Positions 23,884 to 27,419 of a DNA stretch of 64,000 bases are shown here, piece by piece (the first letter of the stretch is position 1; each line of letters opens with the position of its first letter). The DNA lies in the NCBI GenBank assembly GCA_010093705.1, contig MU006089.1:1723561-1787560 (forward strand). The letters run 5' to 3'. Under the pieces are notes generated by a model. The model searched no databases. It was not told the DNA's origin and saw only the letters and a list, made by a program, of their open reading frames with translations. The translations under genes and the position numbers were made by a program. Origin of the DNA: Patellaria atrata CBS 101060 (Eukaryota).

Positions 23884-25272
23884 ATGGCAAGATCATCACC
23901 AGACGGAGCTATATCTATCACCCTCCTAGATCTATTCTCCAATTCTCTGGTCCTCCATCAGACCGCGCCTTATCTATCCGTCTCATCTCTGTTCGCCCTC
24001 GGCGCAACATGCAGGTCATTCCAGAATCTGGTCCTCCAGTCCCCAGAACCTATTCGCCATCTCGATCTCTCCCCCGTCAAATCTGCAATCACACCAGATG
24101 TAAAGCCATTAGATTCCGGCGGTATCAACTGGCGAGCTGAGCGGATGGATGAATCCCTTACTGAAGATGACTTTTACACGGGTCCTTTGCGCGGAATATT
24201 CTCGAACCTGGGGAGACGAAACCTCCTTGTCAATGTTAATACATTGGTGTTAGATGGTCTCAGCGTGACTGCTGAAATCGTCAGGGAGATCATCTGTGAA
24301 GACAGGTTCAATGTCAGAATACTATCAATACGCGAAGCAAAGAATCTCAATGAGAGGAAGTTGATGCAAGTTCTCAAATACGCTGTTCGTCCATCAAGGC
24401 CCAAGAATACGCCGCGATTGAGGGGCCTATACTTTTTCACACCGAGAGATAAGGACGCGCAAGAGACGGATAGTGCACAGAGATACACGCGATCCCCGGT
24501 GAGAAACCGGTCTCCTGTTGGAATTACTTCATCCCAGGGTGCTCAGATCGGTGCCGAGTGGAACCAGCGCTCTATCGATACACTTACAACGGTTCTTGCT
24601 AGGACAAATGATAAGTGGTACAAAGCTTCCGGCCGCATTCTACCACGGCCTCCAATCCCTGAATGGGCTGAGACGTTACAAGCCTGCGAGGGCATCATCC
24701 ATTTTGATGCTGTTATATGTCGAGGACCACGGCACAATGCGGATACGGCTGTTCACCAGAGCGTTGTAGATCCACGACGCGTACACCCTCTCTCATATCT
24801 TCCCCCAGCTATTGCAACAGTCGCTCTTGGACCTAGTGGATGTACAACTTGTCATTCCTGCCCCGAGGGTGCCGGTGTCTTTGGAGAATCTCCATCGCAT
24901 CACTTACCACTTCTAGCTCCACCACCTCTGCATTCTACTTTAATCCGTGTTGCTCAAGGCCCTTCGACAATTGATGGATCAGCACCTCCCCCATTGATTG
25001 TTCGATGCGAAGGATGTCTCCGTGGACGATGGTGTGAGCGTTGTAATAAGTGGTGGGACGAATCATGTTTCTATGGGTCACTCAATGGAACTCGGACACA
25101 CATGCAACAACTGGAATACATAAGCGAGCTCATGAACTCGATGGGAATACACCAGCATGAAAGTGACGAGCATAAGCTTGTTGAAGTCAAGGTACATATG
25201 GGTCTCTGCATAGAAAATTGTCTGGTTGGCGAAATGATAGCTGGAGCCGGGAGCAGTGGTATGTGGGGTTGA
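23884..25272 (+). CDS. F-box-like, Cys-rich fungal protein (unspliced form, 462 aa, ends GAGSSGMWG)
   Basis: N-terminal F-box-like segment (LLDLFSNSLVLHQTAPYLSVSSLFALGATCRSF), LRR-like TLVLDGL/ILSIRE, C-terminal CEGC..WCERCNKWW. Family assignment by resemblance only. Confidence 0.7.
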   Translation: MARSSPDGAISITLLDLFSNSLVLHQTAPYLSVSSLFALGATCRSFQNLVLQSPEPIRHLDLSPVKSAITPDVKPLDSGGINWRAERMDESLTEDDFYTGPLRGIFSNLGRRNLLVNVNTLVLDGLSVTAEIVREIICEDRFNVRILSIREAKNLNERKLMQVLKYAVRPSRPKNTPRLRGLYFFTPRDKDAQETDSAQRYTRSPVRNRSPVGITSSQGAQIGAEWNQRSIDTLTTVLARTNDKWYKASGRILPRPPIPEWAETLQACEGIIHFDAVICRGPRHNADTAVHQSVVDPRRVHPLSYLPPAIATVALGPSGCTTCHSCPEGAGVFGESPSHHLPLLAPPPLHSTLIRVAQGPSTIDGSAPPPLIVRCEGCLRGRWCERCNKWWDESCFYGSLNGTRTHMQQLEYISELMNSMGIHQHESDEHKLVEVKVHMGLCIENCLVGEMIAGAGSSGMWG

Positions 25273-25499
25273 TCAATCTTAGAATTCTAGGAAATCAGCA
25301 CCCATACTACTGAAGGAGCATTTACGAAGTAGTTGGACCTGATACGGCCCGTTGGCCGGCTGAAGAGCCGACTATAAGTAAACCGCACCTCGACATAATG
25401 TCCCGGCGCGCTAAGGTATGCGCAACTGCGCTGGATTAGCAATCGAACGCTCTCATCGAAACTTAGTTCATGGAAGAATTTACTAACATTTTCTTCCAG

Positions 25500-25784
25500 G
25501 TTGGCTCCCAACGTGATTGCTTCGGCTGTGGACACACTGTACGTCTTTCTGAACAAGTTTTGGTTTTCTAATACTAATCTTTCTTGATCAGTGTGCCGAA
25601 TGCAAGGAGATTTACATCCGTAGATGCAAATTTTGTAGGAACGAGTACTGCGTCGAGGACAACGACGGATCCTCGGATGTTGCTGTAAGTCCGGGATTCC
25701 AATTTCAAGTCTTCCCTGGCTAACGAGTCTTCTTAGTGTGACTGGTGCAATTATAGTGGAAGAAGAACAAGAGAACTTTATTGA
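25500..25784 (+). CDS. Three hidden spliced exons encoding a Cys-rich zinc-finger tail VGSQRDCFGCGHT|CAECKEIYIRRCKFCRNEYCVEDNDGSSDVA|CDWCNYSGRRTRELY*
   Basis: Exons 25500-25538, 25592-25684 and 25737-25784, all phase 0. Each is preceded by a CTAAY branch site and YAG; donors GTACGT (25539) and GTAAGT (25685). The joined frame is stop-free with four CxxC motifs. Confidence 0.8.
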
Positions 25785-26383
25785 ATGTCAATCAGGGTTG
25801 GTACGAGTACTTGGTAAAATCTAGGTAAAATCGACTTCCCTAGATACAAGGGCCGCGAGGATTAAGGGGGAGATCTCCACTCAGATACAAAAAGAGGAGG
25901 ATTATTTCTGAGCTCATACACTCTGATGCTGGTCATTGGAGTCGGCGTGTAATACCCATCTTACGAATTCCATTCTTCTCACTCCTATATAATTTCAATA
26001 AACTACACCTTTCTTCTAAATATTGATAGTAATTTGCAAAGTATTGGGGAGTTTTCAATTAAAGAACAACAAACCACTTACCAACACAGGGACTTACTGC
26101 GTTTTCCAGAATTTATATCCATTGCTAAGGTACGACTTCACCGAAAACTCACAAAGATAGATAAGTAGCTCCCTAGTAACTCAAGGCATCCTTATGTGGC
26201 CCCGAATCCAGAGAGCTTCATAGGTTCCCATCCCAAGAATCCACATCTCCGCAATAATTCAACACAAAACCCTCAATAGCTTCACGACTCAAACTCTGAC
26301 TCTCAAAATATCCCCCTAGACATTTAAATAATTCATCTTCCTGCCACATCTCATCTGCAACTTATAGACCCGCTGAGGCCGTC

Positions 26384-27419
26384 ATGGCCAACTACTACCA
26401 GCAGCAGCAACAACCGTACGGCGCGCAAAACCTTCAATTCTACCCTTCCTCATATTCAGGTCAACCTGTATCCGGTCATTCAACTCCGTTTCAAGCATAC
26501 AATGGCGGAGCACAGTCGAATTCCTTTGGTGGAGCTACTTTCGGCGCGGGTTTTGGTAGTCAGCCGGCTGTGAGTGGTAGAATGGGTGAACAAGGAGGAT
26601 TGAGGACAGGATGGCTGGCAGCATTTGGAACAGAGGGTTATGAGGGAGAGCCTCCACTATTGGAAGAGCTAGGGGTTAACTTTGGACATATTAAAATGAA
26701 GGTTTGTTCACCCAACCTCTTATTAACTACCATGAGGCTGCTGGCATAGCTATGACGATGAACTTGGCGAAATAGACAACAATTAACAACTTATCTATAC
26801 ACAGACTCTTACAGTATTAAACCCACTTGCCCGAATAGATCAACATATCATGGATGACTCCGACTTGGCTGGACCTATACTCTTCTTCCTCCTTTTTGGC
26901 ACGTTCTTGCTTTTTGTAAGTATCAAGAAAGATTCATTGTAGGAGCAAGCTACTAACATCATACAGTCGGGCAAAGTGCATTTCGGTTATATTTACGGAC
27001 TCGCGCTTCTCGGAAGTACTTCACTACACATGATCCTTTCCTTAATGTCTCCACCCTTAACATCGGCTGAACAAGCAGCTGTGCAAGATCATCGAGCTAG
27101 TAGCTCACACTTCTCTTCAAACCTTACTTTCCCGCGCTCCGCTTCGGTCTTGGGCTATTGCCTTCTCCCTCTAGTCCTCACATCTCTAGTTGGCATAGCC
27201 GTTCCAATGGATGGTCTTTTCGGATATCTACTCACGAGCGCTGCGATTATGTGGTGTACTTATAGTTCTAGCGCAATGTTCTGTGCTGTTGGCAGAATGA
27301 GTGGGATGAGAGGTTTGGTAGCGTATCCATTGGCTCTATTTTACGTTGGATTCGGAATCATGGCTATATTCAGCTCAAGAGGGACAGGTACATTAGCAGC
27401 GAAAGCTGCTGGCGCTTAA
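26384..27419 (+). CDS. YIP1: Yip1-family ER-Golgi trafficking membrane protein
   Basis: EPPLLEELGVNFGHIKMK|TLTVLNP..MDDSDLAGP..GKVHFGYIYG..SVLGYCLLP..LVAYPLALFY. Introns 26702-26804 and 26916-26966. Confidence 0.95.

Follow-up and report, generated by a model that had tools for sequence, protein, structure and literature searches.

Introduction

The unspliced mRNA of PTC7 is translated through its intron. In Marshall et al. (2013; PMC3597508), PTC7 and SKI7/HBS1 are described as conserved fungal splicing choices in which one gene gives two proteins, and diversification into two proteins by splicing is called 'much rarer in fungi'. Here we describe a gene of Patellaria atrata CBS 101060, contained in positions 1,723,561 to 1,787,560 of contig MU006089.1 (assembly GCA_010093705.1, forward strand; this whole stretch of 64,000 nucleotides (nt) is referred to as the window, and coordinates are counted from its first letter). 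We consider it likely that two alternative 5' splice sites in this gene, at 25192 and 25416, share one acceptor at 25499 and give two conserved C-termini at the locus; judged from related sequences, both products would be kept by selection in Dothideomycetes and relatives. The likeness to PTC7 and SKI7/HBS1 is that of an old, conserved fungal alternative splicing event leading to two distinct proteins. The difference is that SKI7/HBS1 uses alternative 3' sites, whereas here there are two 5' sites and one acceptor, it is the C-terminal module that differs, and the case is known from sequence only. Events of this kind are already known in fungi, in few cases; the present case is undescribed, and no publication on the gene was found in a full-text literature search (F-box, alternative splicing, Dothideomycetes), no other search having been aimed at the gene or its family. 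Conserved alternative splicing with two functional proteins is thought rare in fungi (PMC3597508), and the sequence evidence at this locus is unusually clear.

In Li and Breaker (2013; PMC3597705), the thiamine pyrophosphate (TPP) riboswitch of Neurospora crassa is described as controlling alternative 5' splice sites by long-range base pairing. The present locus resembles it in that a fungal intron region lies between alternative 5' splice sites and a conserved pairing touches one of them; it differs in that there is no TPP aptamer here and that the strong helix is confined to Pleosporales-like relatives and does not occur in the window. The encoded protein is reminiscent of the F-box/leucine-rich repeat (LRR) adaptors of SCF (Skp1-Cullin-F-box) ubiquitin ligases (FBXL type), with repeated sub-threshold F-box-like matches at residues ~20-55 and corresponding cluster names in the Atlas; it differs from them in falling short of the Pfam cut-off and in its weak structural likeness to FBXL2 and FBXL13 (template modelling score, TM, 0.31-0.35). 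Should the gene encode a ubiquitin-ligase adaptor, switching would alter the presumed substrate-facing end of the protein. Endings in -WG, -AG and -PG are presented in a review as Gly-end C-degrons recognised by mammalian CRL2-KLHDC10 (PMC7458402). The short isoform likewise ends in a conserved hydrophobic-W-G, an analogy that may be taken as a lead only, the pathway being one described for mammals.

The evidence base consists of 72 related loci (L numbers) from scanned metagenome contigs, together with about 290 homologous proteins (P numbers). For the window protein, P0001, 1167 homologues were found at E <= 1e-3 among 8000 candidates scored. The three named sources that were checked are all Dothideomycetes, namely Lepidopterella (Mytilinidiales), Lasiodiplodia (Botryosphaeriales) and Trematosphaeria (Pleosporales), and the remaining named organisms among the homologues we take to be Dothideomycetes as well.

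Results

Two donors and one acceptor allow two open products

A preliminary description of the window had pointed to an open reading frame (ORF) followed by three downstream exons that encode a nine-cysteine tail, and had proposed three routes (A, B and C) by which this tail could be joined in frame. The ORF end and the three exons are present as described, and joining the exons by coordinate gave an in-frame product for each route: 495 amino acids (aa) for route A (25191^25500, where the caret marks a splice junction; intron of 308 nt, GTACAT..TACTAAC..CAG), 545 aa for route B (25258^25333 and 25415^25500; introns of 74 and 84 nt) and 65 aa for route C, which begins at the ATG at 25398. That description had overlooked a probable second mRNA form, in which the donor at 25416 is used without removal of the 74-nt intron, the protein ends in GMWG and the Cys exons fall into the 3' untranslated region (UTR). 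The acceptor CAG at 25497-25499 is common to the proximal donor (25192) and the distal donor (25416), and with these two donors and one acceptor each product is open, one of 495 aa and the other of 462 aa. The database protein of the window organism is the 462-aa form.

In the mechanism that we favour, use of the proximal donor would remove 308 nt and join K436 to the three exons, giving a protein of 495 aa with a 59-residue Cys9-His zinc-type tail (the zinc tail; nine Cys and one His from the three downstream exons). Use of the distal donor, or no splicing at all, would instead add 26 further codons (tail 1) up to the stop at 25270-25272 and give the protein of 462 aa ending ..GAGSSGMWG, the Cys exons then lying out of frame in the 3' UTR. 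The zinc-tailed form may be the ancestral full-length adaptor and the short form a version without the zinc domain, which may differ in partner or stability, or compete. A conserved element of 107 nt between the two donors may modulate the choice between them.

Both tails are conserved at one locus

Tail 1 and the Cys exons were found at the same locus in 63 of the 72 related loci, usually 110-350 nt apart, so that both tails hold up in the comparison that the preliminary description had called for; because the same pair recurs at one locus so often, it stands above chance. The two coding ends occur together in three or more orders of Dothideomycetes, and also in lineages whose proteins are 43-50% identical to that of the window. 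Among the nine exceptions, three (L022, L038 and L045) are RNA-like, spliced contigs that lack tail 1, five (L013, L015, L028, L051 and L054) stop short of one feature, and in one (L014) tail 1 is followed by no more than a degenerate remnant of the Cys exons.

In L014 (2994-3340) the GMWG tail and its stop are intact, and the downstream Cys exons have decayed to a remnant like ..QCASCSQSGRRTWESC. This lineage may have retained the short form only.

Public gene models are divided between the two ends. Among 120 listed homologues, 86 end in hydrophobic-W-G (..KVHMGLC...CLV.EMM.GAGS.GMWG) and 14 have tail 1 with another end, six of these stopping one residue early at ..GMW and the others being truncated or diverged. 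A further 19 end in the Cys tail with the join ..IK^(V/I)IGVRRDCFGC.., which is that of route A, and one (P0102) carries both tails. An annotation that takes either class alone misses half of the locus.

Tail 1 was compared in 49 non-redundant sequences (48 loci and the window), 31 of which have the 27-codon form. Few stretches of the protein are as well conserved, and the changes within it fall mostly on the third codon position: for the 31 loci with the 27-codon form, the entropy at codon positions 1, 2 and 3 is 0.49, 0.35 and 1.19. The third bases of Gly, Ala, Leu and Cys codons are free to vary while the residues are constant, and the stop, TGA in 27 and TAA in 4 of these loci, is fixed in position. 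The end (M/L/F)WG followed by a stop is found in 35 of the 49 sequences; six more belong to the K-I-F lineage treated below and one is cut by the contig end. The zinc tail shows corresponding constancy. The motif of its exon 2, with five Cys at fixed spacing, was found in 57 of 73 sequences (42 non-redundant), with entropies of 0.83, 0.92 and 1.51 at codon positions 1, 2 and 3. All nine Cys of the zinc tail are invariant in 21 annotated proteins and 10 intron-free tails, as are C471, D472, W473, C474, R479, R480 and T481 of exon 3 in the 21 annotated proteins. On this comparison of codons and residues, both alternative coding ends are under purifying selection.

We considered whether GMWG could be a mere footprint of a GTATGT donor, and rejected this. 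Of 30 loci, 29 have GGG, GGA or GGC as the Gly codon, and an LWG or FWG end before the stop persists in loci where CTT or TTT replaces ATG; because these loci keep the ending, no GT donor explains the conservation of (M/L/F)WG and its stop.

A donor embedded in tail 1 and two candidate mRNA forms

Of the 49 non-redundant sequences, 47 have AAG as the Lys codon of the route-A junction. The following Val codon is GTA in 40 of 43, compared with 142 of 875 (16%) Val codons in the upstream ORFs of the same loci, and the His codon is CAT in 32 of 33, compared with 237 of 467 (51%) His codons upstream, these being counts over related sequences and not over independent events. Other Val and His codons within tail 1 use all synonyms. 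This contrast within the same sequences is as would be expected if the coding sequence contained a donor AAG^GTACAT (GTATAY in loci with Tyr), that is, a splice donor frozen at synonymous sites within a coding tail. The proximal donor is weak, because the usual G at +5 is missing. The distal donor, AAG^GTATGC, is consensus-like and lies in a conserved box, GCGCGC(C/T)AAG^GTATG.

Both forms have counterparts among contigs of relatives that we take to be RNA-derived because introns are missing from them. The contigs L022, L045 and L038, which are 99.5% identical to one another, read continuously ..ATLK^GVHQDC..CDWC..RRTRELF-stop, which is the route-A join; the genomic loci L035-L037, at 85% identity to these three, have ~330 nt extra at the join, starting AAG^GTATAC and including KVYSNLC..GMWG-stop. 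The same join in another lineage is given by P0151, an uninterrupted ..DIK^MGSKRDCFGC.. ORF on a contig of 1360 nt. L008 retains tail 1 with its stop and a further 150 nt or so, and three short GT..AG segments of the genomic loci L065 (79% identical to L008) and L010 are missing from it. The first of these starts ..CGCGCCAAG^GTATGT, some 50 nt upstream of the first Cys exon, and the second and third are the Cys-exon introns. L008 would correspond to the second mRNA form: the distal donor is used, translation ends at GMWG, and the 3' UTR takes in the Cys exons, which are out of frame. In the window, the homologue of this distal donor is the AAG^GTATGC at 25416. L060, from a further lineage, resembles L008 in form. 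The proposal in the preliminary description that splicing swaps the C-terminal module thus gains comparative support, with both tails coding, the route-A donor conserved and both forms represented in RNA-like contigs of relatives.

A segment of ~351 nt, situated within the N-terminal portion of the coding sequence, is retained in L038 (442-792). It is absent from the near-identical L022 and present in the genomic loci L035-L037, which suggests an upstream intron in this lineage and partial splicing of L038.

One lineage appears to keep both ends by a different arrangement

Eight loci (L018, L019, L020, L021, L048, L059, L047 and L055) carry Lys-Ile-Phe (K-I-F) where the others have K-V-H, and they lack a GT at the Lys position. 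The ORF of these loci stops at ..GAGS.GM, and splicing restores ..GAGS.GMWG followed by a stop in eight of eight. The intron concerned is of 85 nt in six of them (L018:3051-3145, L019, L020, L021, L048 and L059) and of 59 nt in two (L047:3835-3903 and L055); it begins at AT^GTGAGT (85 nt) or AT^GTTAGC (59 nt), has GCTAAC or GCTAAT as its branch site and ends at TAG^GTGGGGGTAR. The ten bases GTGGGGGTAR that begin the Cys exon are dual-frame, giving either W-G-stop or V-G-V (VGV.RDCW..). All seven K-I-F loci examined have a phase-0 donor GAG^GTGAGC at a distance of 39-51 nt on the upstream side of the Lys, and it would join ..SE^VGV.RDCW.. to give the zinc form. The positions differ from those in the window, and the predicted design is the same, with two donors, one acceptor and two ends; here the exon would be read in two frames so that both ends survive. 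A single K-I-F protein with both tails was considered and ruled out, the translated junction giving GMWG and a stop.

Points for and against two selected products

We regard it as unlikely that this is an ordinary multi-exon gene in which only the route-A mRNA matters and the ORF ending in GMWG is a gene-caller artefact over a 308-nt intron. Route A does appear in many curated-looking annotations, including models of 485 aa in several Parastagonospora nodorum strains, more distant family members have the zinc domain directly after the common part, and a decayed tail 1 is seen in 7 of the 48 complete non-redundant loci (L024, L049, L053, L056, L061, L066 and L069). An artefact is countered by the high conservation of tail 1, with variation mostly at third positions and the stop position held, by the restoration of the GMWG end through splicing in all eight K-I-F loci, and by L008 and L060, which keep tail 1 while other introns are gone.

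The reading of two donors with two selected products has several observations weighing against it. Tail 1, truncated or diverged in the seven loci just named, is therefore dispensable in some lineages. The two mRNA forms come from different species and never stand side by side in one, and the RNA origin of L008, L022, L038, L045, L060 and the P0151 contig is our inference and not on record. The only two public runs listed as containing the stretch, neither of them an RNA run, gave single colinear contigs without joints, which are DNA-like and possibly the source of the assembly. The codon counts at the donor share the dependence among relatives mentioned above. An mRNA with three exon junctions after its stop may be a target of nonsense-mediated decay, and the short form could therefore be scarce. 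Structure models of the C-termini are poor, with a predicted local distance difference test (pLDDT) value of 49.7 for P0001 (25 sequences) and 43.8 for P0023 (21 sequences).

Routes B and C are poorly conserved

Of the three-route scheme in the preliminary description, route A held and routes B and C failed on conservation. Route B as the main product here would be a protein of 545 aa in which tail 1 without MWG is followed by a linker of 28 residues (25333-25415) and the zinc tail, and we think this very unlikely. It is in frame in the window, its donor G^GTATGT matches the consensus, and route-B-like forms occur in Lasiodiplodia annotations (P0102, P0124 and P0126). Against this, the donor requires the Gly codon GGT, which is seen in 1 of 30 loci, the window itself. 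The linker or 'middle exon' has kept neither a length class nor an open frame: its length from TAG^TTGGA to the distal donor, modulo 3, is 1, 2, 1, 0, 0, 2, 1, 0, 0, 1 and 2 in 11 sequences, and the open frame ending at the distal donor is 0-11 codons long in 7 of 15 loci. The TAG acceptor lies within a conserved stem, the 74-nt intron has no clear branch-site consensus, and the region is conserved as DNA and not as protein. Route B may occur as a minor form in the window organism and in Lasiodiplodia; it is not a conserved design.

The Lasiodiplodia annotations, which concern the orthologous gene, offer a close parallel to these routes. DBV05_g1333 of Lasiodiplodia theobromae has annotated isoforms of 485 and 532 aa, and DIS24_g1576 of L. 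hormozganensis has isoforms of 485 and 520 aa, all of these being database gene models. A Lasiodiplodia form of 452 aa ending in GMWG corresponds to the unspliced reading, that of 485 aa to route A (DIK^IGVKRECFGC), and those of 520 and 532 aa to two versions of route B (..AGSA, a linker, then GVKREC). The window protein is about 58-60% identical to the Lasiodiplodia group.

That the locus is dicistronic, or holds a separate micro-gene for a 65-aa Cys-rich protein starting at ATG 25398 (route C), is highly improbable. An in-frame ATG exists in the window, and some short predicted proteins of the library carry the zinc tail (for example P0182, of 135 aa); in the short library proteins examined, however, the parts upstream of the zinc match are unconserved. 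The in-frame ATG is found in only 5 of 15 loci, L007 has a stop directly before the donor, and in the RNA-like contigs the zinc exons are on the same molecule as the main ORF.

A conserved non-coding element between the two donors

A profile built with nhmmer from 14 relatives, with the window excluded, gave one match in the 64-kb window, at 25315-25421 (E 4.8e-12), and this element scores as conserved DNA rather than protein. Within it lies a predicted hairpin, 25329-25375, with a consensus of 16 pairs in the window and nine relatives and with both sides changed at three pairs; the TAG at 25330-25332, which the preliminary description had taken as the route-B acceptor, is part of its base, GUAGU/ACUAU. 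The fold of 25262-25450 is better than that of shuffled sequences (z -3.28). In Rfam, a search of 25100-25800 gave no family, with two chance-level matches only (E 1.5 and 2.6).

A separate local hairpin is predicted at 25262-25306 of the window, between the MWG-stop codons (UGUGGGGUUGAU) and a stretch 30 nt downstream, AUCAGCACCCAUA; the GTATGT donor of route B, which is particular to the window, would be covered by it.

In Pleosporales-like loci, the distal donor region GCGCGCCAAG^GTA has its reverse complement in a box, ACCTTGGCGCGC, which in most of these loci lies 5-15 nt past the stop of tail 1. The predicted helix is GC-rich, has 15-19 base pairs and includes the GU of the distal donor (L001:3838-3984, L007:3842-4006, L010:3844-3987 and ten other loci). 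Duplex energies in the relatives range from -20.7 to -32.9 kcal/mol. Compared with 300 dinucleotide shuffles, none was as good in 9 of 13 relatives, and in the other four 4, 4, 12 and 50 shuffles were. In an alignment of 14 sequences, 92.4% of the cells of the helix pair, versus 22-40% with the partner slid, and six pairs have both sides changed, a number reached in 0 of 500 shuffles. Compensatory changes include CTATTAGCGCGC with GCGCGCTAATAG in L007 and CCTCGG with CCGAGG in L009. Folds of the whole region in relatives gave z values of -4.5 and -4.7. In L006 and L046 the helix is present and the inner domain is absent. In these Pleosporales-like relatives we read the helix as hiding the strong distal donor and shortening a long intron, either of which would favour the weak proximal donor. 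The long-range helix was rejected for the window itself, where the best duplex (-15.1 kcal/mol) was equalled by 224 of 300 shuffles.

It is conceivable, and in our estimation distinctly unlikely, that the element is a structured RNA switch governing how much of each protein isoform is made. The helix of the Pleosporales-like relatives (15-19 base pairs, -25 to -33 kcal/mol) would bury the GU of the distal donor and collapse the long intron, in favour of the weak proximal donor. If temperature, a protein or a small molecule then acted as a signal to open the helix, the output would flip to the short form ending in GMWG. If true, fungi would have a splice-site switch with no relation to the TPP riboswitch. 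Of these parts, the inner hairpin and the donor box are kept in the window and the long helix is not, so that a switch there would act via local hairpins or not at all.

The common part and the zinc tail

In scans of eight whole proteins, seven gave F-box-like matches below the cut-off (14-22.8 bits versus 24.3, residues ~18-62), with 14-17 bits for P0001, and P0183 gave no F-box match. The curated cut-off for F-box membership in Pfam (PF00646 and PF12937) was thus not reached in these scans. The Atlas places P0001 in clusters from Ascomycota that bear the name F-box domain-containing protein. The Cys-rich C-terminal half is without a model in Pfam.

The zinc tail has a fixed set of Cys and His residues with conserved spacing, which are putative metal ligands. 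In comparison with known zinc-finger families (C5HCH, AN1, treble-clef and PHD) it gave no match above cut-off; exon 2 scored 22.1 bits against C5HCH, where the cut-off is 26.3, and one of ten full tails matched C5HCH (E 0.001). A search of PDB sequences gave nothing significant (UHRF1 at E about 0.5), an Atlas search with the zinc tail gave no usable match, and a region-limited protein search with it returned 10 proteins only. The zinc-tail family is narrow: a profile of ten intron-free tails gave only 109 matches at E <= 1e-3 among 1.84 billion representative proteins. In many of the long matching proteins the zinc domain lies at or near the C-terminus, after the same ..RWCE.C..WWC..C motif, and in more distant family members it is joined directly to the common part. 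Because these more distant members carry the domain, the zinc-tailed form is probably the ancestral full-length product.

Features of the locus and the neighbouring gene

The features discussed above are collected in Table 1. The two introns within the zinc tail, of 53 and 52 nt, have donors GTACGT and GTAAGT, branch sites TACTAAT and GCTAAC, and acceptors CAG and TAG, respectively.

Table 1. Coordinates of features at the locus, in window positions.
Feature	Position	Strand	Remark
ORF, 462 aa (P0001)	ATG 23884 to TGA 25270-25272	+	ends ..VHMGLCIENCLVGEMIAGAGSSGMWG-stop
Common exon, 436 codons	23884..25191	+	weak F-box-like N-terminus, LRR-like middle, Cys-rich region ..RCEGCLRGRWCERCNKWWDESC..
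Proximal weak 5' splice site AAG^GTACAT (putative)	25192..25197	+	overlaps Val-His codons of tail 1
Tail 1, 26 codons VHMGLCIENCLVGEMIAGAGSSGMWG and TGA	25192..25272	+	translated only without use of the proximal donor
Route-B donor GTATGT	25259..25264	+	codons GGT ATG T; coincidence specific to the window
Route-B 'middle exon' of the preliminary description	25333-25415	+	covered by the conserved non-coding element
Conserved non-coding element, 107 nt	25315..25421	+	between the tail-1 stop and the distal donor
Predicted conserved hairpin	25329..25375	+	within the conserved non-coding element
Route-C ATG	25398..25400	+	unconserved
Distal intron, 84 nt	25416..25499	+	donor AAG^GTATGC, branch site TACTAAC 25481-25487, acceptor CAG 25497-25499
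Zinc-tail exon 1 (VGSQRDCFGCGHT)	25500..25538	+	
Zinc-tail exon 2 (CAECKEIYIRRCKFCRNEYCVEDNDGSSDVA; CAEC..CKFC..C..)	25592..25684	+	
Zinc-tail exon 3 (CDWCNYSGRRTRELY and TGA stop)	25737..25784	+	

A scan of the window for bacterial promoters and terminators gave nothing, which is irrelevant to a fungal gene. The next gene downstream (26384-27419, + strand) has a Gln-rich first exon starting at ATG 26384, and its exon at 26943-27419 matches the Yip1 domain with 31 bits against a cut-off of 28.6, as for an ordinary multi-exon gene of the Yip1 family.

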